A program made the position numbers and the translations under genes. From a virus (Duplodnaviria > Caudoviricetes), in IMG/VR virus record IMGVR_UViG_3300028832_000095, positions 32,001 through 96,000 of that record: 64,000 bases of DNA; one strand, written 5' to 3'. Positions 23,166-34,587 of the stretch are shown here, piece by piece. The notes under the pieces are model-generated. The model had not been told where the DNA came from. It searched no databases and worked only from the letters and a program-made list of their open reading frames with translations. Within the stretch, counting starts at the first letter, position 1, and each line of letters starts with the position of its first letter.

Positions 23166-25538
23166 ATGGCAGGGTTCTTTGGTTTAAGCTCTGCAAGGTC
23201 TACAAAGAAACGTGATCAGAAGTTAGCAAAATCAGCTTCTAAAACAGTACAGAGTTCCACTGCCGTTAAAATAAAGGGCAGTGGAACACTATTAGATAAA
23301 ATACAAGCAATCAAATCACTTGTAAAGTCTAAGTTTGAGGGTAAAGAGGATGAATTAAAACTAATCGTCACGGAAGCAGATCTTAAAGAGTATATTGATA
23401 AAAGTATAGAAAATGGAGTAATAAGTATAGATACTGAAACAACAGGTCTTGATCCAATACTAGATCAACTTGTAGGTATTTGCATTTATACTCCAGGTCT
23501 TAAAGCAGCATATATCCCGGTAAACCATATAAGTTATATCACACAAATCAAGTGTGAGAATCAACTTCCAGTTGAAATACTCACAAAGTATTTTCAGATG
23601 CTTGTTGATGAAAATGTCAAAACTATATGGTTTAATGCACCCTTTGATATTCGATTTTTAGGAAATCATATCAATGTTTGGTTCACGGCATATTTCGATA
23701 CTTCTATAGCATCTAAATGTTTGAACAGTGCCGAACCAGAAGGTTCTAGAACACTCAAAGCCCTACACAAGAAATATTGCTGGGGAAACAGAGGAGAAGC
23801 CTTAACATTCGGAAAACTGTTTGAGAATATTCCATTCAATCTAGTTCCAATAGATGTTGCATATTTATATGCGGCAAGTGATGCTATTTATACATATGAA
23901 TTGTATGAATTTCAGGCACAGTATCTGGAACCAGATGGAATATATTATGAATCTCATAATATGCAAAGACTTTCTTCTTTGTTCTTTAATGTAGAGATGA
24001 AGTCTATGGTAACATTTATATCTATGGAGCAACAAGGTGTTTGTTTTGATTATGATCATGCAAAGAAACTTTCTGAGCAATATCATGAATTAGCCGATAA
24101 GGTAGAACAGAACCTCAATACTGTTTGTGAACCATATATGAATAAGATAAATGATTATCGTAGGACACATCCTAATTGTAAACTAACAGATCCAATCAAT
24201 TTTGGTAGCCCAACACAATTAGCAATAATTCTGTATGATATCTTAGGAATGAAATCTCCGGATGTTAAAAACCCAAGAGGAACAGGTGTTGACATACTAG
24301 AACAGATGGATCATCCTTTGTGTAAGGCAGTTTTGGATAATAGAGCCTTTTCCAAAGTTCTTAGCACTTATATTGATAAACTTCCAGAGGAAGCATCAAA
24401 GTATCCGGATAAACGAATACATTGTAAGTTTAATCAGTATGGTGCAGATACTGGTCGTGTTTCTTCCAATTCACCTAATCTACAGAATATCCCTAGTAAT
24501 CCTTTTGTTCTTAGTGATGGAACAAAGATTGATTCGGGTCACGATGTAAGACAGTTGTTTACCGCAACCCCTGGTTATGTTTTACTTTCTTGTGACTATT
24601 CTGGACAGGAAGTAAGAGTTACCGCACATCTAAGTAATGACCAAAAAATGATAAAGGCATACCAAGATGGTAAAGATGTTTATTCTGAAATAGCAGCGCT
24701 TGCATTTAATACCACCTACGAAGAGTGTTGTGAGTACAGACCTGATGGAACTGCTAATCCAGACGGAAAAAAACGTAGAGGAGAATCGAAGAAAATTGTT
24801 CTTGGAATTCTTTATGGACGTGGTATTCCTTCTATTGCAGAACAATTAGGAAAGTCTGTTCAGGATGCACAAAAAATCTATGATAAAGTTCTTTCAAAAT
24901 TTGAAGGTCTTGCTAAGTTTATTTCTGATTCCGAAGATATGGCCAGGGAACTAGGTTATGTTGAAACCGTATGGGGTAGAAGGCGTCAACTCCCAGATAT
25001 GCAATTACCTTATTATGAGTTTTCTTATAAGAGTGGGTATAATCCAGACTTTGATCCTCTTAATGACGATGTTGAAATGTCTTCGGAAGTTCCAGAAGAT
25101 GTTGTAAGAACATTAACTAAAAAACTCTTGAATTGTCGGAGTTGGAAACAAAGGGAATCGTTAAAAGAGCAAATCAGAAATCAGGGTATTAACATAAAGG
25201 ATAATAGCTCTTTTATAGCTCAGGCACAAAGGCAGTGTGTTAATGCAAGAGTTCAGGGGTCTAGTGCAGATTTGACAAAACTAGCACAGATAGAACTTTA
25301 CAATAATCAAGAACTTAAAGATCTTGGTTTTCGAATGTTAATTCCAGTACACGATGAAATCATCGCTGAGTGTCCTGTTGAAAATGTAAAAAGATGTTCT
25401 GAGTTAATGAGTTATTGTATGGTTCACGCAGGAAAGGATCTTTGTGTTCCCCTTAAATGTGATGTGGCACTATTTAAGAGTTGGTACGGAAAAGAATTAA
25501 GTGTTGAAGAAGTTCTGGAACAGTTGGGGAGTGATTAA
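23166..25538 (+). CDS. polA: DNA polymerase, family A, with 3'-5' exonuclease
   Basis: IDTETTGLD, YAASDA, TGRVSSNSPNLQNIP, DYSGQEVR, K..VLGILYG, VHDEI. Confidence 0.95.
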   Translation: MAGFFGLSSARSTKKRDQKLAKSASKTVQSSTAVKIKGSGTLLDKIQAIKSLVKSKFEGKEDELKLIVTEADLKEYIDKSIENGVISIDTETTGLDPILDQLVGICIYTPGLKAAYIPVNHISYITQIKCENQLPVEILTKYFQMLVDENVKTIWFNAPFDIRFLGNHINVWFTAYFDTSIASKCLNSAEPEGSRTLKALHKKYCWGNRGEALTFGKLFENIPFNLVPIDVAYLYAASDAIYTYELYEFQAQYLEPDGIYYESHNMQRLSSLFFNVEMKSMVTFISMEQQGVCFDYDHAKKLSEQYHELADKVEQNLNTVCEPYMNKINDYRRTHPNCKLTDPINFGSPTQLAIILYDILGMKSPDVKNPRGTGVDILEQMDHPLCKAVLDNRAFSKVLSTYIDKLPEEASKYPDKRIHCKFNQYGADTGRVSSNSPNLQNIPSNPFVLSDGTKIDSGHDVRQLFTATPGYVLLSCDYSGQEVRVTAHLSNDQKMIKAYQDGKDVYSEIAALAFNTTYEECCEYRPDGTANPDGKKRRGESKKIVLGILYGRGIPSIAEQLGKSVQDAQKIYDKVLSKFEGLAKFISDSEDMARELGYVETVWGRRRQLPDMQLPYYEFSYKSGYNPDFDPLNDDVEMSSEVPEDVVRTLTKKLLNCRSWKQRESLKEQIRNQGINIKDNSSFIAQAQRQCVNARVQGSSADLTKLAQIELYNNQELKDLGFRMLIPVHDEIIAECPVENVKRCSELMSYCMVHAGKDLCVPLKCDVALFKSWYGKELSVEEVLEQLGSD

Positions 25539-26423
25539 GTGGGATTTGACATTTATTTTGCTGGAAGTCAAAATAAACTTGCCGAAGATTATATGATGAA
25601 TAATGGTTGTAATAGACTTCTTTCCTATTACAGTGATAAATCTATTATTAAATCTTGGGTGGATTTCAAAAAGTCTACCCAAGATACCACAAACAAGTTA
25701 TTTATAGACTGTGGTGCCTATACGGCATTTACTCAAGGTGTTACAATAGATATAGATAATTATATTCAGTATATAAATAATATTATTGATTATATTGATA
25801 TATTTGCGAGTTTGGATATTATTGGGGGTGGGGATGTTCAGGACTCGGATAAGAAAAGTTACGACAACTATTTATACATAAAAGAACATTGTAAAGGTAA
25901 GCATAAATTACTTCCCACATATCACCAGGGGGATGATATTCAATATTTGTATAAGTATTTAGAGGATGATGATATTGATTATATTGCTCTGGGAGGTTTA
26001 GTAGGAAGTACAAAAGGTGTTCTTGATAACTTTTTTCAAACTTGTTATAAAGTTATACAAAAAGTAAGACCCGGAATTAAGGTTCATGCATTTGGTATGA
26101 CTTCAAAACCTCTTTTAAAATCCTACCCATTTAAAAGTGCTGATTCCACAGCGTGGATTATGACAAGTGCCAATGGAGGTATAATGTCACCTTGGGGAGT
26201 TATCAATATTAGTGAAAAACAAGATCATTTGGTAAAAAATTATGCCAATATGCGGAAAGAGGAACAAGAACAGGTTCAACAGTATTTACAGTCTCTTGGT
26301 TTTACTGTTCAACAATGTATGGAAGATTATAAAATAAGGTGTCTCGTTAATATTATGTATTTACAACAATTCGCAGATAACCATGAACGTAAATTAAAGG
26401 GTTTAAAAAAATCCTTATTTTGA
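25539..26423 (+). CDS. dpdA: TGT-fold DNA 7-deazaguanine transglycosylase (DpdA-like)
   Basis: FIDCGAYT, LDIIG, PTYH, IALGGLV, VHAFG, SADST motifs; adjacent to preQ0 synthesis genes and the polymerase. Confidence 0.75.
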   Translation: MGFDIYFAGSQNKLAEDYMMNNGCNRLLSYYSDKSIIKSWVDFKKSTQDTTNKLFIDCGAYTAFTQGVTIDIDNYIQYINNIIDYIDIFASLDIIGGGDVQDSDKKSYDNYLYIKEHCKGKHKLLPTYHQGDDIQYLYKYLEDDDIDYIALGGLVGSTKGVLDNFFQTCYKVIQKVRPGIKVHAFGMTSKPLLKSYPFKSADSTAWIMTSANGGIMSPWGVINISEKQDHLVKNYANMRKEEQEQVQQYLQSLGFTVQQCMEDYKIRCLVNIMYLQQFADNHERKLKGLKKSLF

Positions 26424-26435
26424 AAGGAGCTTTTT

Positions 26436-27692
26436 ATGTGTACTATTTGTGGTGGAACTGCCCTAAATGAAAACTTTCTTCCTATATTTCAAACATCCCT
26501 AGATCGCGGCCGAGATTATAGTAATGTTTTTTATAGAAAAGGAAGTTGGATTTGTAACCACCGGGCAGTTCCTACAACTGAAGTTGAGAACGCAGAATTT
26601 AACCAACCTTTCGGAACTGATTATAAAATAGTGCATAATGGAACTATTAGCAACGATAAAGAATTAGGTAACCCGGACGGTATGATTGATAGTTATATTT
26701 TTAGTAAAGTTCTTGACTTTACAAATATCCATTCACTTAGGGATAGTTTATATAAAGTGGTGGGAGCCTATGCCCTTGGAATTCTAAGACCAGATGGAAA
26801 TTTTTATTTGGCCTGTAATTATAAACCCATTTTTTATACATACGATAAACAAGGAAGTTTTTATTTTAGTTCCTACGAACATCATCTAAGCTCCGTTGGG
26901 GACGTTAAGAGAGTTCCTCCCTATTCAGTAATGGATTCTAAAACAGGGGAGATCGTAAGTATTAAAAGGGATATTCAGGATAGGGCCATTGTTATCGCCT
27001 CTGCCGGTTTGGATAGTACCGCGGTAGCGGCGTATGCCTGTGCCACACATAAAGAAGTGACTTTATTGCACTATAATTATGGTTGTTTGGCGGAAACACC
27101 TGAATTGATTCGAATTAAAAAGATTCAGGAATCCCTCAACCACACATATGGAAATTGTTCTTTATATGTAATGGATTTGGACCTACATTTTATGGCTCAT
27201 GCTAGTACAATTTTAGACGGTAAAGAAAACATTGCAGAAAGTGTTTCTGGAAGTGAATATGCCCATGAGTGGGTTCCTGCCCGTAACCTTATTATGATGT
27301 CAATGGCCGTGGGGTATGCGGAAGCAAATAATTTTAGTTATATTTACCTTGGTACAAACCTCGAGGAGTCCGGGGCATACCCAGACAATGAGGAACAGTT
27401 CATTAAAGACTTTAATAGATGCTTGTATGGGGCTGTTCAGAATGGTAAATATGTTGAAATTAGAACTCCTGTGGGTAATTTAATGAAACATGAAATTATT
27501 CCATTTGGTCTTAAATATAAGGCACCTTTTGAGCATACCTGGTCTTGTTATAGAAACGGGGATAAAGCCTGTGGACATTGTGGACCTTGTTTTATGAGAC
27601 AGAAAGCATTCTTCCGAAACGGTTTAGTAGATCCTATTGAATATGAAGAGCGTTTAGATTTTGAGGATAAGGAAAAAGATTATGCTAAATGA
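26436..27692 (+). CDS. queC: Gat-QueC fusion (class II glutamine amidotransferase + 7-cyano-7-deazaguanine synthase)
   Basis: N-terminal MCTICG, HRAVPT, VHNGTI, DS (Ntn-GAT); SAGLDST, VPARNLI, YPD, TWSCY..CGHCGPC (QueC). Confidence 0.9.
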   Translation: MCTICGGTALNENFLPIFQTSLDRGRDYSNVFYRKGSWICNHRAVPTTEVENAEFNQPFGTDYKIVHNGTISNDKELGNPDGMIDSYIFSKVLDFTNIHSLRDSLYKVVGAYALGILRPDGNFYLACNYKPIFYTYDKQGSFYFSSYEHHLSSVGDVKRVPPYSVMDSKTGEIVSIKRDIQDRAIVIASAGLDSTAVAAYACATHKEVTLLHYNYGCLAETPELIRIKKIQESLNHTYGNCSLYVMDLDLHFMAHASTILDGKENIAESVSGSEYAHEWVPARNLIMMSMAVGYAEANNFSYIYLGTNLEESGAYPDNEEQFIKDFNRCLYGAVQNGKYVEIRTPVGNLMKHEIIPFGLKYKAPFEHTWSCYRNGDKACGHCGPCFMRQKAFFRNGLVDPIEYEERLDFEDKEKDYAK

Positions 27693-28068
27693 TAGGGATA
27701 AAAAAGATATAACTCCAGAAAAGGTATATGTAACATGGGATGATGTTGAAGAGTTCATAACTTGTGCATCTTCTTATCTAGGATTAGAAGCATTTTCTAA
27801 ATCCTATACAGGTGTATATGGACCTGCCCGAGGAGGACTTATATTTGCAGTTATACTTTCTAATAGGTTTAATCTTCCTTTTCTTGGGGCACCTCAGGTG
27901 GGTTGCATTTGTGTTGATGACATCTGTGATACAGGAGATACAGCCTTAGCATGGAGAAATAAGGGATATACTATTGCCACTATGTTTTATAAGAAAGGTG
28001 CTAAGGTTACTCCTGATTATTGGGCGAAAGAAAAAGAAGATAAGTGGATTGTATTCCCTTGGGAGTGA
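27682..28068 (+). CDS. Type I phosphoribosyltransferase, Gpt (xanthine-guanine PRT)-like
   Basis: VTWDDV, RGGL, VDDICDTGDT (PRPP-binding) and WIVFPWE. Confidence 0.8.
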   Translation: MLNDRDKKDITPEKVYVTWDDVEEFITCASSYLGLEAFSKSYTGVYGPARGGLIFAVILSNRFNLPFLGAPQVGCICVDDICDTGDTALAWRNKGYTIATMFYKKGAKVTPDYWAKEKEDKWIVFPWE

Positions 28069-28074
28069 ATTATT

Positions 28075-28554
28075 ATGTATAATGATAATATTATGAAGAC
28101 TACATCTAAGCATGCTTTGCTTGGATGTAGTCACAATAAAGGTGGACCTTTTGGTGCTTGTGTGGTAAAGGACGGAAATATTGTTTCACTTGATTATAAT
28201 TCTGTTTTAGTAGATAAAGATCCAACGGCTCATGCTGAGGTGAATGCAATAAGAAATGCTTCTAAAAAACTAGAAACATACGATCTTTCCGACTGTGAAT
28301 TATATGCAACAGGTTATCCTTGTCCAATGTGTTTAGGAGCTATAATGTGGGCAGGTATTAAGAAAGTATATGTTAGTGGATTACTTGAAGATGCCGAAAA
28401 GATTGGGTTTAAAGATAAAATTATATACGAGACTATTGACAATCTGAAAGATTTATGTTATAATACAAATAACTTAGAGCTAGAGTTTGTTGATAGAAGC
28501 ATAGCACAAACTCTATACGATAAGTACGAAAAACAAAAAGGAATTATTTATTAA
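28075..28554 (+). CDS. guaD: Guanine deaminase (GuaD, cytidine-deaminase fold)
   Basis: GGPFGA, DPTAHAEVNAIR, PCPMCLGAIMWA, GFKD..IY and C-terminal Tyr, as in B. subtilis GuaD. Confidence 0.8.
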   Translation: MYNDNIMKTTSKHALLGCSHNKGGPFGACVVKDGNIVSLDYNSVLVDKDPTAHAEVNAIRNASKKLETYDLSDCELYATGYPCPMCLGAIMWAGIKKVYVSGLLEDAEKIGFKDKIIYETIDNLKDLCYNTNNLELEFVDRSIAQTLYDKYEKQKGIIY

Positions 28555-28565
28555 GGAGGTTTACC

Positions 28566-29024
28566 ATGAGTCGAATTAGTGTTTGTAGACACGTTGACTT
28601 CGAAGCAGCCCATATGTTAGAGGGGTATGTTGGTGGGTGCGGTTCCTGCCATGGACACTCGTATGGATTGGAAATTATTATTTCCTGTCCAGAATCTTCC
28701 AGAAAGGAAGGAAGATTTGGGTTTGTTTTAGACTTTAAGGAACTTGACAAAGTAATCAAAGAAAATGTTCCAGATCATATGTTTATGTTTAACGAAAATT
28801 GTAAAGAAGGTTCTGTCGAATATCAGATTGTTCAGATTCTTAAATCAAACAATCTCAGAACATGGGGATTTACTGATGTTCCATCTGCCGAGAATATGGT
28901 AGAGGAATTAGCATTTAACTTCCAAAGAGTGTTTGACTTATTTTATCCAGACTTACAAATCACGGTGGATGAACTTAGACTTTGGGAAACTAAGAACTCA
29001 CACGCTATATGGAAGAGGGGATAA
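28566..29024 (+). CDS. queD: 6-carboxy-5,6,7,8-tetrahydropterin synthase
   Basis: FEAAH, C..CHGHSY, LDF, DH, SAEN, LWET. Confidence 0.9.
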   Translation: MSRISVCRHVDFEAAHMLEGYVGGCGSCHGHSYGLEIIISCPESSRKEGRFGFVLDFKELDKVIKENVPDHMFMFNENCKEGSVEYQIVQILKSNNLRTWGFTDVPSAENMVEELAFNFQRVFDLFYPDLQITVDELRLWETKNSHAIWKRG

Positions 29025-29027
29025 CAC

Positions 29028-29729
29028 ATGAAAATAACAGAGTTATTCAAATCAATCGAAGGGGAAGGTATTAGAACTGGAAGAGTGTGTACTTTTGTCA
29101 GGAGTTTTGGATGTCCCCTCCGTTGCATCTACTGTGATTCTATGTACTCTAATGAAATAACTCCCGATCAAATCATACTGGATATGAGTGTTGAGGAGAT
29201 TGTAAACGAGTGTAAAAGAATGAAAACCCCTTATGTAACACTCACCGGTGGAGAGCCCTTAATTCAACCTGAAATAAATGAACTTATAGAATCCTTATTG
29301 GAAAATGGCTTTGAAGTTAATATAGAAACAAGTGGAGCTTGCGATATATCGACAGTACACGAATATCTTGCAAAAAAGAAAAAACATCCTCTTATGGATA
29401 AACTCATATTTACAGTAGATTATAAATCTTATTCCAGCAAATGTACTGGTATGATGATCATTGATAATTTCCTGAAACATATCCGGCCAACAGATGTTGT
29501 TAAATTTGTAGTAGGTTCTAAACAGGATCTGGATCAAATGAAGCACGTCGTAGAACTTATACAGGATTCTAAAAAGGAGTTTCAACCACATTTTTATGTA
29601 AGTCCTATTTTTGGAATGATTGAGCCTAAGGAGATTGTAGAGTACCTAAAAGAAAACGATCTTTTTGATGTTCAAGCTCAATTGCAAATTCATAAATTCA
29701 TTTGGGATAAAAATATGAAAGGAGTTTGA
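29028..29729 (+). CDS. queE: 7-carboxy-7-deazaguanine synthase (radical SAM)
   Basis: [34 protein letters not shown]. Confidence 0.92.
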
Positions 29730-30325
29730 TTGTTTTGGAGAAGAAAAAGAAGATCAATAAAAAACTTATTGAAAAGAGTGTAAGAAACATCCTTCTTGCA
29801 CTCGGGGACGATCCGGATAGAGAAGGACTTCTGGAAACTCCAAAAAGAGTAGCAAAGATGTATGAAGAAGTATTTGAAGGAATGCTTTATACAAATGATG
29901 AGATTGCTACTATGTTTGATAAGTGTTTTGAAGACACCACTATGGGGGATTTGGTAATTGTAGACGATATTCCTATTTTTAGTTATTGTGAACATCATAT
30001 TGCGTTGATGTACGATCTTTCAGTAGCAGTAGCATATATTCCAAAGGGTCGTGTTATTGGGCTTTCCAAAGTAGCCCGTATTGCTGATATGGTAGGTAAG
30101 CGTTTACAGCTTCAGGAACGTATTGGTAGTGATATAATGGAAATTATGCAAAAGATTCTTAAAACAGATGATGTTGCTGTTATTATTCAAGGTCGTCATA
30201 GTTGTATGGCGGCAAGAGGAATTAAGAAACCTAGCATTACAAGGACTTGTGCATTGGGTGGAGAGTTTAGAAACAATGCAGCTCTTCGTCAAGAACTGTA
30301 TTCAAATCTTAACCATAAAAATTAA
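29726..30325 (+). CDS. folE: GTP cyclohydrolase I
   Basis: [38 protein letters not shown]. Confidence 0.95.
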
Positions 30326-30340
30326 GGAGGAAAATAAACA

Positions 30341-31429
30341 ATGGGATCTTTAACAATCAAAACTGGTGTTCTGCAAAACCTTATGTCGAAGGCAGTAAAG
30401 GGAGCATCAAACAGTAAATTCAATGTTCTTACAAGTCTGATGCACGTTAAACTGGAAAACGGGATTCTGTCTATGACAACGACTGACAGTGATAATTATC
30501 TTACACTTAAACAGAAGGACGTAACAGGTGATAACCTTTCATTTACTGTAAATGTAAATACATTCAGTAAACTTGTGTTTAAGACAAGCTCCGAAAATAT
30601 CAAGATCTCTGTTACAGATGATACGATTTCTGTTTCAGGAAACGGTACTTATAAAATTCCAATTCAACTGGATGTTGACGGATCTGAGATTAAGTATCCA
30701 ACTCATGAAATCAATAATCCTGAATATTCCGGAACAGTTAAGACATCTGTTCTTAAAACAATCGTTCAGTATAATAAACCGTCTCTTGCACTGACAATGG
30801 AGAAACCGTATCTCACTCGTTATATGTGTGCCGATGATTGTGTTATTTCTGGTGATGAGTATAATATTTGTAGAAATAATGTATCTACTTTTGGAACAAA
30901 AATTTTAGTATCCCCGGTTGTAATGGAACTTCTTTGTATGTGTGAGGAAGAGGATATTTCTTATAAGATTTATCAGAATAATGCATTGTTTGAAACAGAA
31001 TCTATGAAGCTGTTTGCAATGCTATCTGATGGAGTTGAAGAATATCCAGTAGACCTTATTAAAGGGATCACGGAAGCGGAATACCCATCTGATTGTGTGA
31101 TTCCAAAAACAACTATGATCAATGTCATTGATAGACTTTCAATCTTCATTAACGACGATGATCAGAATGGACTTTACATGACATTTACAAAGGACGGCAT
31201 TAAGATGGAGTCTATGAAGAATGACGGAGTGGAGTCTGTTCCATATCAAGGAAGTAATAACTTTAAGGACTTCACTTGCTGCGTTGGTGTTGATTCATTT
31301 AGAAAGCAGCTCGCATCAAGAACAGGAGAATCTGTCCATATCTATTATGGTGACGATTCTACACTCACTCTCAAAGAAGGAAATATTATTCAGGTAATTT
31401 CTTTACAGGAAGATCCTAGAATGGAATGA
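30341..31429 (+). CDS. dnaN: Sliding clamp, DNA polymerase III beta-like
   Basis: 362 aa; LSMTTTDSD, KYP and EEYP linkers; three-domain beta-clamp pattern. Confidence 0.75.
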   Translation: MGSLTIKTGVLQNLMSKAVKGASNSKFNVLTSLMHVKLENGILSMTTTDSDNYLTLKQKDVTGDNLSFTVNVNTFSKLVFKTSSENIKISVTDDTISVSGNGTYKIPIQLDVDGSEIKYPTHEINNPEYSGTVKTSVLKTIVQYNKPSLALTMEKPYLTRYMCADDCVISGDEYNICRNNVSTFGTKILVSPVVMELLCMCEEEDISYKIYQNNALFETESMKLFAMLSDGVEEYPVDLIKGITEAEYPSDCVIPKTTMINVIDRLSIFINDDDQNGLYMTFTKDGIKMESMKNDGVESVPYQGSNNFKDFTCCVGVDSFRKQLASRTGESVHIYYGDDSTLTLKEGNIIQVISLQEDPRME

Positions 31430-31440
31430 GGTAAATAAAT

Positions 31441-32406
31441 ATGCCCAAGATGAAATCACTTTTTAATGTGGATCGTCTTGTAAGTGGAAAGGATACCCCG
31501 ATTGAGGTATCCTTTCTACAAGATTTCGATTTCACACAAAGAAAGATGAATGAGTATGTTCCTCACTATTACTTTAAGAAAATAACACTCTCTGACTATC
31601 ATTCGGAAGACAAGATGACAAACATTGTTTGTTTAGATGTACTTCCAGAAGAATGTAAACCAGAAATGGTATATGAAACAAGTGATATTATATATCATAC
31701 AAATGATAATAATTATTATATTGGATGTTATTCTGATGGTAAACCTTCAAGAAGATATAAACCATCATTACTTCATTGTATCCGTCAAATGTATTATCAG
31801 ATAACTGGTGCGAATATGGATAAACAAAGTTCCAAGACAGGAGAGTTTTTATCCATATGTGAGTCCGGAACAGATAGGCATAAACGTATTCAAGAAGTTA
31901 TTTGTAATATGAAGAAACATGGCATTGATTGTGAGTATATTGATGTAGCAGATTATATTAAACAAAATAATTTGAATCTGGAAGTTGTAAGCAAAACAGA
32001 TTATGAAACAAAAGTCTATGACAAAGAACATAACATTATATTCCTTTGTGATGGCATTATAAAGTATAAGAACAGGCTTTTTGTGTTTGAGTGTAAAACA
32101 GAATCTTCTTTTAAAGCTATGGGAAGATCGGGTGTAGATGATTCTCATAAGTATCAAGCCTATACATACGCCCTTGAATTTGGAATTGATGATGTGTTGT
32201 TTGTATATGAGAATAGAGATATTTGCACCAAGAAAAGTTATATTTTACACGTTACAGATGAGAATAAACAGTTTATTTTAGATAGGATTAGTAGTTGTGA
32301 TGATTATGTAAAAATGAATATTGTTCCTCCAAAAGAGGAAACAGTGGATAAGAAGATTTGTCAGTATTGTGAATATAAAACACAATGTAAGGTGGATAAA
32401 GCATGA
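31441..32406 (+). CDS. Cas4/AddB-like PD-(D/E)XK exonuclease with Fe-S cysteines
   Basis: PSLLHCIRQMYY, GTDRH, DG..ECKT, Q..Y, CQYCEYKTQC. Confidence 0.8.
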   Translation: MPKMKSLFNVDRLVSGKDTPIEVSFLQDFDFTQRKMNEYVPHYYFKKITLSDYHSEDKMTNIVCLDVLPEECKPEMVYETSDIIYHTNDNNYYIGCYSDGKPSRRYKPSLLHCIRQMYYQITGANMDKQSSKTGEFLSICESGTDRHKRIQEVICNMKKHGIDCEYIDVADYIKQNNLNLEVVSKTDYETKVYDKEHNIIFLCDGIIKYKNRLFVFECKTESSFKAMGRSGVDDSHKYQAYTYALEFGIDDVLFVYENRDICTKKSYILHVTDENKQFILDRISSCDDYVKMNIVPPKEETVDKKICQYCEYKTQCKVDKA

Positions 32407-32915
32407 GAGCCGTAAATAGAGGAAAGGATTTTGAAAAAGCCATAAAGGAATGTTTTGAATCTGTTGAGAATGTTTCTTTTGACAGACTTCCTGATCCAAT
32501 GGCAGGTTATTCAGGAGTTCGCAATATTTGTGACTTCTCTATGTATCATTATCCTAATATGTTTTATCTGGAATGTAAATGCTTATATGGAAATACTCTT
32601 AACTATGCCGGAGCCATTACAAAGAATCAATGGGAAGGTATGTACGAAAAGAGTAAAATATTTGGTTGTGTTGCAGGAGTATGTGTTTGGTTTATTGACT
32701 ATGATCTAACGGTATTTGTAAATATCAAGGATCTATGGGAACATAGAAACTCAGGAGCTAAATCATTGAACATTCAGGATATTACTGGAGAGAACAGTGT
32801 TCCTCATTTCATTATAGACGGAGTTAAGAAAAAGGTAATGTTTAGATATTTCGGTGAGAGTGCTTTGAACAAACTTCATACAATAGCAAAAGAAACATGG
32901 GGTGATTCTAAATGA
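32403..32915 (+). CDS. recU: RecU-like Holliday junction resolvase
   Basis: NRGKDFE, CDF, LECK, NQW. Confidence 0.75.
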   Translation: MRAVNRGKDFEKAIKECFESVENVSFDRLPDPMAGYSGVRNICDFSMYHYPNMFYLECKCLYGNTLNYAGAITKNQWEGMYEKSKIFGCVAGVCVWFIDYDLTVFVNIKDLWEHRNSGAKSLNIQDITGENSVPHFIIDGVKKKVMFRYFGESALNKLHTIAKETWGDSK

Positions 32916-33433
32916 GTTGGAAAGACAGCTTGAACGAATATTTAGATAAAAGTGAATCCGATGCTGAGTATATTGATGATATTGTTTTTGCTATAACGAC
33001 CGATATCTGTAAAAAACTTGACGGATATGTTTCTTATGTTTCTCAGATTCTAAAAGATACCTCACACGCAATAACAGACGAAGAATTAGATGATATTATA
33101 ATGACAATACCAACATTAGTTTACTTTGTCAGTGAAGCACAGGAACGTATGGGAATCAGACAGGATGTGTCAGAAACTAATTACAAGAATCTATATAATA
33201 AGTATTATACACAAGCAGAAGGTACTGCTCAAATAAGAAAGTCTTATTGTGAGGGGTTATTAGAAAATGAAGCATTGGTATCCATAGTTTATAAGAAAGC
33301 GTATGATATTATTAAACAGAAAGTATCTATTGCGATTGAGTTGCTTCAATCTTCTAAAAAAGTTCTTTCTCGGAGGATGTCTGCAGCTGAACTTGAAAGA
33401 TCTGCACCGAATAAAGATAGGAGTGTGTTTTAA
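32912..33433 (+). CDS. Helical protein, possible UvsY-like recombination mediator
   Basis: Coiled-coil character; directly upstream of recA. Confidence 0.4.
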   Translation: MSWKDSLNEYLDKSESDAEYIDDIVFAITTDICKKLDGYVSYVSQILKDTSHAITDEELDDIIMTIPTLVYFVSEAQERMGIRQDVSETNYKNLYNKYYTQAEGTAQIRKSYCEGLLENEALVSIVYKKAYDIIKQKVSIAIELLQSSKKVLSRRMSAAELERSAPNKDRSVF

Positions 33434-34587
33434 TGTCTAAAACAGAGACACTGTTCAAAGAGTTTAATAAAAAGTGTAAAGCCGAATTATTCACAGTTGG
33501 TACAGCGGTACATAATTGTGAAAGAATACCTTTTAGTAGCCCTAGGGCAAACTATATGCTTTATGGAGGTATTCCAAGAGGTCGTATTACAGAATTTTCC
33601 GGAGAGGAAGGCTCGGGAAAAACAACTTCATCTATTGATATAGCCGCAAATGCACAAAAGATGTTCGAAACATCTTGGCAAGAAAAAATCAATAAGTATG
33701 AATCAATGGATAAGCTAACAAAAGAACAATCAACAGAATTATTAGAACTTCGTGATCGTGGTCCTCTTAAAGTGTTTTGGGTAGATTGTGAAAATACATT
33801 TGATGAAGAATGGGCAAGAGTTTTAGGACTTGATGTATCTAAAATATATTATATGTCTCCAGAATCACAAAGTGCAGAAGAAATATTTGAAATGGTAACA
33901 CAAATCATAGATACCGGGGAAATCGGTCTTTGTATCATTGATAGTCTTGGTATGATGGTATCACAACAGGAAATGGATAAGACCATTGAAGATTCCACAT
34001 ATGGTGGTATTTCAAGAGCTTTGACAAAATTCTCAAAGAAAGTTGAAACAGTTTGTGCCAGAACTAATTGTGCCTTAATTGGAATCAACCAAGTAAGAGA
34101 TAATCTTAATGCCGGATATGGTGGACCCACAACAGTCACTCCTGGTGGAAGATGTTGGAAGCACGTCTGTTCAGTTCGCTTACAGTTTAGACAAGGTACT
34201 CCATTTGATGAGAACTTTAAGGATGTTAAAAAAAGTGCAGAGAATCCATATGGACATAGAGTTCAGATTCATGTAGTAAAAACAAAGGTATGCAAACCAG
34301 ATAGGAAATTAGGTTTTTATACTCTTACTTATGATAAAGGAATAGTTCCTCTTGTAGATATTATTGATATTGCAATTTCTAGAGATGTTATTCATCAAGC
34401 CGGACCTTGGTTTACGTTTATTGATATTGATTCCGGAGAAATTCTTTGTAAAGAAGAAGATGGAAAACAAATTGAAATAAAGGTACAAGGTCAGGCAAAT
34501 CTAATACCCTTTTTACAAAAAGAGGAAAATGCTTATATTCTGGATATGATTCAGAGGTATGTAGACAAATTTACATATAATAAGTGA
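33433..34587 (+). CDS. recA: RecA/UvsX recombinase
   Basis: GGIPRGRITEFSGEEGSGKTT, IIDS, INQVR, TPGG..WKH, KTKV. Confidence 0.93.
   Translation: MSKTETLFKEFNKKCKAELFTVGTAVHNCERIPFSSPRANYMLYGGIPRGRITEFSGEEGSGKTTSSIDIAANAQKMFETSWQEKINKYESMDKLTKEQSTELLELRDRGPLKVFWVDCENTFDEEWARVLGLDVSKIYYMSPESQSAEEIFEMVTQIIDTGEIGLCIIDSLGMMVSQQEMDKTIEDSTYGGISRALTKFSKKVETVCARTNCALIGINQVRDNLNAGYGGPTTVTPGGRCWKHVCSVRLQFRQGTPFDENFKDVKKSAENPYGHRVQIHVVKTKVCKPDRKLGFYTLTYDKGIVPLVDIIDIAISRDVIHQAGPWFTFIDIDSGEILCKEEDGKQIEIKVQGQANLIPFLQKEENAYILDMIQRYVDKFTYNK

Follow-up and report, generated by a model that had tools for sequence, protein, structure and literature searches.

The 7-deazaguanine DNA of phages serves as a defence against restriction and is the subject of active research. 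In phage 9g the proteins Gat-QueC and DpdA suffice for the formation of deoxyarchaeosine (dG+) (PMC6884629), and a 2023 study found that all phages known to have 7-deazaguanine DNA encode DpdA, pointing to post-replicative insertion (PMC10516641). DpdA acts by double displacement and readily exchanges [14C]guanine into DNA (PMC10164549), so that insertion of the deazaguanine is subject to competition by free guanine. Here we describe a cluster of such genes from an uncultured phage of ~200 kb. It occupies positions 25539-30325 on the + strand of the window, the whole stretch of 64,000 nucleotides (nt) that was analysed (bases 32001-96000 of the 201,895-bp IMG/VR virus record IMGVR_UViG_3300028832_000095). 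In addition to genes for DpdA and for the synthesis of 7-cyano-7-deazaguanine (preQ0), it encodes a small phosphoribosyltransferase (PRTase) and a guanine deaminase-like protein. The core modification system is known; the additional proteins are two putative helper enzymes that recur with DpdA/preQ0 clusters. The phage deazaguanine papers of 2016, 2019 and 2023 and the others that were searched link neither a PRTase nor a guanine deaminase to DpdA clusters. With moderate confidence, we propose that the helpers remove and recycle guanine around the DpdA exchange. Gene identities, conserved catalytic and substrate residues, predicted folds, co-occurrence and gene fusions are what was observed; the substrates, the benefit to modification and the final base are inferred. 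The cluster consists of seven open reading frames (ORFs) in the following order:

25539-26423, + strand: DpdA-type DNA guanine transglycosylase, DpdA1-like and not DpdA3 (phrog_887, 1.5e-52)
26436-27692, + strand: Gat-QueC, a class II glutamine amidotransferase fused to QueC (PF06508, 1.3e-50; PF13537 (GATase_7), 1.2e-5)
27682-28068, + strand: putative loop-less mini 6-oxopurine PRTase, Gpt/XGPRT-like, 128 amino acids (aa) (NF006613, 4.4e-11, below cut-off)
28075-28554, + strand: putative guanine deaminase of the cytidine deaminase (CDA) fold, B. subtilis GuaD type, 159 aa (PF00383, 5.8e-24)
28566-29024, + strand: QueD, 6-carboxytetrahydropterin synthase (PF01242, 3.2e-17; TIGR03367, 5.3e-15; phrog_2389)
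29028-29729, + strand: QueE, radical SAM 7-carboxy-7-deazaguanine (CDG) synthase (TIGR03963, 7.2e-67; PF04055, 4.9e-16; CPLRCIYC motif)
29726-30325, + strand: FolE, GTP cyclohydrolase I (PF01227, 5.4e-61; NF006826, 3.8e-66, above cut-off)

The initial annotation had described a tight seven-gene cluster between polA and the clamp gene, and every gene was found where it had been placed, on the + strand. Spacing between adjacent genes ranges from -11 to +15 nt, and no terminator-like sites were detected on the + strand between 22514 and 32500. The cluster is immediately preceded by a family A DNA polymerase gene (PolA) and immediately followed by a processivity factor gene. We interpret the cluster as a putative post-replicative 7-deazaguanine DNA-modification operon inside the replication module of a large phage.

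Family matches (Pfam, NCBIfam, PHROG) were obtained for all five canonical enzymes, FolE, QueD, QueE, Gat-QueC and DpdA, and DpdA is thus encoded in the same genome as the preQ0 synthesis genes FolE, QueD, QueE and QueC. Neither QueF nor a phosphoribosyl pyrophosphate (PRPP) synthetase encoded by the phage was found in the 201,895-bp record. The nearest counterpart of the window DpdA is the enzyme from Streptococcus phage Dp-1 (tblastn, 36.5% identical along the full length). The window protein also matched the DpdA of a Stenotrophomonas phage (29% identity, E 9e-30), the DpdA of phage 9g (E 4e-23, tblastn) and the 'DpdA' of Iggy (5e-20, tblastn), and had no similarity to the DpdA3 of phage immuto. 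No Pfam match was obtained for this protein, and its profile gave no significant match in the PDB. PolA adjoins DpdA in 76 of 80 DpdA loci. One viral contig carries two tandem DpdA genes (L131:2264-4078), 38% and 37% identical to the window DpdA. The Gat-QueC protein begins MC..., so that the Ntn (N-terminal nucleophile) catalytic Cys2 is present, and is 41.5% identical over 92% of its length to the Gat-QueC of phage 9g. Judged by these matches, the core belongs to an already described type of phage system for modifying DNA with 7-deazaguanines. Because the Gat-QueC of 9g, to which that of the window is related, is sufficient together with DpdA for dG+, the expected final base is likely to be dG+ here as well. 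FolE, QueD and QueE would convert GTP to CDG, Gat-QueC would convert CDG to preQ0 and then most likely to the archaeosine base, and DpdA would swap this base for guanine in phage DNA with release of the guanine.

The closest solved relatives of the deaminase are the guanine deaminase of B. subtilis (bGD; 1wkq, 9e-31) and the guanosine deaminase AtGSDA of Arabidopsis (7dbf, 1e-25); TadA and cytosine deaminases scored well below these. A model produced by AlphaFold2 (AF2), with a predicted local distance difference test score (pLDDT) of 87, was matched by Foldseek to 7dbf (best) and to 1wkq (48% identity in the core). The zinc site (motifs HAE and PCPMC; residues H53, E55, C83 and C86) is invariant in eight phage homologues. 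Equally invariant in these, in alignment with 1WKQ, are N42, D114 and the C-terminal Y159. We take N42 and D114 to be substrate residues as in bGD. In AtGSDA the terminal Tyr makes a hydrogen bond to purine N7 and caps a size-restricted pocket from which larger analogues are excluded (PMC9739398). A positively charged residue preceding D114 (GF[R/K]D) was considered as a phage adaptation to a 7-carboxylate or nitrile and was rejected, R being equally common in cellular homologues. The guaD assignment of the initial annotation stands as to type, with the zinc and substrate residues kept, and can be refined to a probable guanine or (deoxy)guanosine deaminase.

For the PRTase the likelier start is ATG 27682, which is preceded by AAGGA and places the gene in an 11-nt overlap with the queC stop; an alternative TTG start is present at 27661. 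Its sequence relatives in the PDB are 1vdm and 1a95. Comparison with E. coli Gpt (1A95) revealed that the RGG pyrophosphate loop, the DDxxDTGxT PRPP motif and the C-terminal WIxxPWE are kept, and that the purine pocket has equivalents in K104 (Gpt K115) and W122-I123 (W134-I135). Among 31 sequences there is no variation in R50, G51, G52, D79, D80, D83, G85 or W122, and in an alignment of eight there is none in K104 or T87; the PRPP- and purine-binding residues are all invariant, in free and fused forms alike. D83, the third acidic residue of the PRPP motif, presumably occupies the position of HGPRT Asp137, which contacts purine N7. The AF2 model built with 31 homologues (pLDDT 91.4) has the type I PRTase core fold, and every top Foldseek match is a 6-oxopurine PRTase (1VDM, Yersinia and E. 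coli XGPRT, Sulfolobus HGXPRT; template modelling (TM) scores 0.72-0.77). Approximately 22 residues matching Gpt 60-81, the flexible loop between core strands 2 and 3, are missing. This loop is absent from most of the mini-PRTase family and is retained in a Brevundimonas phage homologue. The family numbers 5,388 cluster representatives at E <= 1e-10; the best-scoring are mostly 112-150 aa long and the lower end of the list probably includes canonical Gpt. The fold and the 6-oxopurine signature bear out the earlier label 'Gpt-like PRTase', which fits less well in that the flexible loop is lacking and the scores lie below the Pfam and NCBIfam cut-offs.

The genomic context of the deaminase was analysed in the best 80 loci of 191 viral contigs encoding relatives. 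DpdA of the window type was present in the flank in 49 of these and at least one deazaguanine gene in 61, in ~18 different gene orders. Ten genomes lacking DpdA in the flank were sampled, and nine of them, including all five complete ones, encode it elsewhere. As a background, window-type DpdA was found in 176 of 50,697 phage records (~0.35%, compared with 61% of deaminase loci). The co-occurrence of guaD with dpdA, for which the initial annotation had called for a survey, is strong in these loci. Viewed from the other direction, 53 DpdA loci had 6 kb or more of sequence on both flanks, and of these 22 contained the deaminase, six the PRTase and three both. In one 64.6-kb phage (G003, 96% complete), genes for DpdA, QueC and the deaminase are present and FolE is absent. 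In another phage group (L261:8001-9257; also L262 and L263) a single protein of 418 aa (P0313) combines a YhhQ/Vut_1 transporter with a GuaD-like deaminase, and its gene is located between the beta clamp gene and a DpdA gene whose product is 35% identical to that of the window. The flank of the P0313 contig contains no preQ0 synthesis genes, and a GNAT acetyltransferase gene lies between PolA and DpdA. The remaining deaminase fusions are mostly eukaryotic or housekeeping bacterial proteins, and only the YhhQ and PRTase fusions were informative.

The same analysis for the PRTase covered the best 80 loci of 357 IMG/VR viral contigs encoding relatives. FolE was located within 8 kb in 69 of them (86%, against 405 of 50,697 phage records, ~0.8%); the median distance between the two gene starts was 614 nt, and ~20 gene orders were seen. 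DpdA was present in 40 of the 80 loci (DpdA3 in 27, DpdA1-like in 13), over half of the loci ending at a contig edge. Five contigs whose loci had only FolE and the PRTase were examined for DpdA; these are 15-33% complete fragments, and the controls gave no signal. In Brevundimonas phages the PRTase adjoins FolE and QueC is elsewhere in the genome.

The association with FolE is also seen within single proteins. Matches to the PRTase profile were found in 549 longer proteins, and 119 of the best 120 are fusions with the PRTase at the N-terminus and FolE at the C-terminus. At least 34 cultured-phage records carry the PRTase domain inside a gene annotated as GTP cyclohydrolase, and the cultured carriers include NP1, PaMx25, JG054, VpKK5, DoCa3 and MMDA13. 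In 42-kb Stenotrophomonas and Pseudomonas phages the fusion is 297 aa long, with the PRTase in residues 1-~115 and FolE in residues 118-296. Other architectures of the mini-PRTase include tandem duplicated domains (P0361, P0363) and fusions to a ~210-aa C-terminal domain without a Pfam or PDB match (P0369, P0379, P0384, P0403). A PRTase-GuaD fusion of 342 aa (P0359) was found in a housekeeping context in a bacterial metagenome-assembled genome (GCA_024694125.1; L260:8001-9029), and its gene follows one for a guanylate kinase at a distance of three genes.

Each helper is usually found without the other, and they do not form an obligatory serial chain: the deaminase was found in 10 of the 80 PRTase loci and the PRTase in 11 of the 80 deaminase loci. 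For both, plain QueC is the commonest companion, and Gat-QueC and QueF systems occur as well; among 80 DpdA loci, Gat-QueC together with both helpers was seen only in the window and in a 91%-identical relative (L171). Since the helpers accompany QueC, Gat-QueC and QueF systems, they would serve a shared need rather than one end product. The needs common to all these systems are the use of GTP by FolE, which the PRTase tracks, and the release of guanine by DpdA, which the deaminase tracks.

Both helpers keep the residues that contact N7, and for this reason they most likely act on free guanine and not on deazapurines. In the scheme that we propose, the GuaD-type deaminase would convert free guanine to xanthine, and the mini-PRTase would use PRPP to convert guanine, and probably xanthine too, to guanosine or xanthosine monophosphate (GMP or XMP), returning it towards GTP for FolE. 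Acting independently of each other, the two reactions would both lower the free guanine that competes for re-insertion by DpdA. The PRTase would in addition close a stoichiometric loop, one GTP being used and one guanine released per modified site. The quantities involved can be estimated: a 200-kb genome with 33% GC contains ~66,000 G, and replacement of a quarter of these in 100 copies releases ~1.6 million guanines. In a 1-fL cell this would be a millimolar concentration and would exceed the solubility of guanine by far, which makes a sink plausible. The phage also has an ORF of the guanylate-kinase family (L170:1453-2121, ~G000 156655-157323; PF00625, 3.6e-15), whose product would fit a route from guanine through GMP to guanosine diphosphate. 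The pull-and-recycle model of the initial annotation fits best, in that the helpers are tied to DpdA/preQ0 clusters, the N7 residues are kept and guanine competes at DpdA. Its serial order from GuaD through xanthine to Gpt is not obligatory, given the 10/80 and 11/80 overlap, the FolE-less DpdA phage and the YhhQ fusion.

An HD-domain ORF lies ~800 nt upstream of the guanylate-kinase ORF, with one gene between them. Two other PF00156 proteins of the genome were considered and set aside, as they are unrelated to the cluster and end in the PRTase motif (L168:739-1653, 304 aa, 3e-8; L169:847-1647, 266 aa, 6e-6); they may be ComF-like. The second of these genes follows that for a BRCT/HhH protein.

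A number of observations weigh against guanine removal and recycling. Neither helper was matched, at the thresholds used, in many well-studied phages of high substitution (9g, CAjan, CP220, phiST), so that neither is required. The sampled viral loci are often interrelated, and the counts therefore put the number of independent events too high. Two kinase steps separate GMP from the substrate of FolE, and the PRTase-FolE fusion consequently cannot mean substrate channelling, while PRTase-QueC and deaminase-importer fusions would suit enzymes acting on preQ0 equally well. The best match of the deaminase in sequence is bGD (9e-31) but in structure AtGSDA, and its substrate could be (deoxy)guanosine rather than guanine. 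Finally, the PRTase scores below the curated cut-offs (24.0 against 26.3 bits for PF00156; 42.6 against 138 for NF006613), and with the flexible loop lost as well it could be slow, act on a different substrate, or serve for binding or regulation.

A further reading is a general role, in which the helpers are purine-pool genes that raise GTP/dGTP or evade salvage control of the (p)ppGpp type, or the PRTase is a purine/PRPP sensor for FolE, in either case with no particular connection to guanine released by DpdA. Such a role would agree with the lost loop and sub-threshold scores, with relatives whose neighbourhood is not a deazaguanine one (P0379, from a T4-like structural region; L081, from a complete genome of 192 kb that lacks QueC), with the bacterial PRTase-GuaD fusions in housekeeping contexts (L260) and with the further nucleotide genes of this phage, including guanylate kinase. 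We nevertheless consider it unlikely. FolE and DpdA are found in 86% and 61% of the respective helper loci, as compared with ~0.8% and ~0.35% of phage records; the association of the deaminase with DpdA persists where the genome has no FolE, and the residues binding PRPP and purine are invariant in free and fused PRTases. A general role fits poorly with these findings.

The invariant pocket also bears on the suggestion, made in the initial annotation, that the PRTase produces a preQ0 nucleotide. According to this, the mini-PRTase would ribosylate preQ0, CDG or the G+ base with PRPP, in the manner of TubE/ToyH, for pre-replicative incorporation by PolA or for another use. A precedent is TubE, a PRTase of the purine type for which specificity for CDG has been proved (PMC6112128). 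Two separate QueC-PRTase fusions (P0121 and P0419, both metagenome proteins) were found in or beside deazaguanine clusters, that of P0419 having the order ParB-QueD-?-FolE-[QueC-PRT], and there is a MazG-PRTase fusion (P0485); in the window queC ends within the PRTase gene and the cluster adjoins PolA. Against this, DpdA, which uses the free base, is present in the window and in half of the 80 PRTase loci, over half of which are truncated by a contig edge, and was found in every phage known to have 7-deazaguanine DNA (PMC10516641). The 6-oxopurine signature including D83 is kept, although a 7-deazapurine has no N7 to contact, and fusion is far commoner with FolE, a consumer of GTP, than with QueC. 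The nucleotide route is for these reasons disfavoured and in our judgement unlikely, TubE and the QueC fusions speaking for it. More broadly, it seems rather improbable that the helpers act on the deazapurine itself, whether this led to a 2-oxo base in DNA or to a nucleotide route parallel to DpdA.

TGT (tRNA-guanine transglycosylase) family enzymes read the 2-amino group of the base. A quick DpdA tree required at least five gains or losses of the deaminase; DpdAs with and without it nearby interleave, and the closest relative of the window pair is without it, so that there is no sign of a changed base specificity. The proposal that the deaminase strips the 2-amino group from preQ0, the G+ base or an imported precursor, giving a 7-substituted 7-deazaxanthine that DpdA would insert as an undescribed DNA base, has in its favour that the gene is embedded in the deazaguanine pathway and that a fusion with YhhQ, a preQ0-type importer, stands beside DpdA with the synthesis genes not in the flank, an arrangement that would suit action on an imported base, but is very improbable in view of this interleaved tree, of N42 and D114 as in guanine deaminase, of an invariant C-terminal Tyr and closed pocket of the kind that reads N7 and excludes larger analogues in AtGSDA, and of the occurrence of the gene with plain QueC, Gat-QueC and other variants and hence several end products.

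The GC content is 33%, and nearly all genes of the window are on the + strand. Genes for a helicase, primase, single-stranded DNA-binding protein (SSB), Cas4-like nuclease, resolvase and UvsX-like recombinase are present around the cluster and its flanks. No near-identical phage DNA was detected when the cluster was compared by megablast with 50,697 phage records. Other features of the region are as follows:

23166-25538, + strand: family A DNA polymerase with 3'-5' exonuclease, PolA (PF00476, 4.9e-87; PF01612, 2.9e-18)
28436-28464, + strand: candidate internal promoter inside the 3' end of the deaminase gene, 12/12 match to the sigma-70 consensus TTGACA-17-TATAAT with TG extension
30341-31429, + strand: DNA polymerase processivity factor, sliding clamp (phrog_947, 1.7e-25)
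31441-32406, + strand: Cas4-domain exonuclease-like gene, directly after the clamp gene (phrog_1706, 4.4e-32)
32403-32915: Holliday junction resolvase, after the Cas4-like gene
33433-34587: UvsX-like recombinase, after the resolvase gene

The sigma-70-like site is ~100 nt before queD and is a possible internal promoter for queD-queE-folE; the number of such sites in the region is not above that in shuffled sequence.

If guanine removal and recycling is indeed the role of the helpers, they would add a missing metabolic layer to phage 7-deazaguanine modification, namely removal of the product and a closed loop of guanine, GTP and deazaguanine. They would also account for a domain on FolE genes that has gone unannotated, both in at least 34 records of cultured phages and in hundreds of protein clusters from metagenomes, and would provide simple handles for raising the modification level in engineered DNA. 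Should the helpers act on deazapurines instead, a new natural DNA base or a new hypermodification route would be expected.

Comparison with described systems places the locus as follows. Phage 9g (Nonagvirus, PMC6884629) has the same five enzymes, the same broad DpdA type and a cluster located among replication genes; it differs in that no PRTase or deaminase match was found in it. Flavobacterium phage immuto (PMC10516641) encodes a free-standing mini-PRTase, 41% identical to that of the window, directly upstream of FolE; this PRTase is not mentioned in that paper. It has DpdA3, QueF and the DpdN formyltransferase in place of a DpdA1-like protein and Gat-QueC, and no GuaD-type deaminase. The phages with a PRTase-FolE fusion (Stenotrophomonas, Pseudomonas NP1/PaMx25/JG054, Vibrio VpKK5, Xanthomonas) share the loop-less domain and its invariant residues, and their cluster order is QueE-QueC-QueD-[PRT-FolE]-DpdA-clamp-PolA. 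There the two activities would reside in one polypeptide of ~297 aa, whereas in the window the PRTase and FolE are encoded by separate genes with three genes between them. TubE and ToyH (PMC6112128) are likewise PRPP-dependent PRTases of the purine type encoded beside FolE/QueD/QueE(/QueC), but in secondary-metabolite clusters of Streptomyces without DpdA; TubE, compared here by description only, is CDG-specific and 194 aa long. Gpt of E. coli and Yersinia (1A95, 4JLS, 6KP5) and the P. horikoshii protein 1VDM share with the window PRTase the fold, the PRPP motif, the RGG loop and the Lys/Trp pocket, the window protein being 128 aa long as compared with 152 aa and missing the region of the Gpt 60-81 loop. 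The deaminase resembles B. subtilis GuaD/YknA (1WKQ, 1TIY) and 7DBF in its zinc motifs, N42, D114, terminal Tyr and length class. The cellular enzymes serve purine catabolism, whereas that of the window is encoded by a phage, within a DNA-modification operon.

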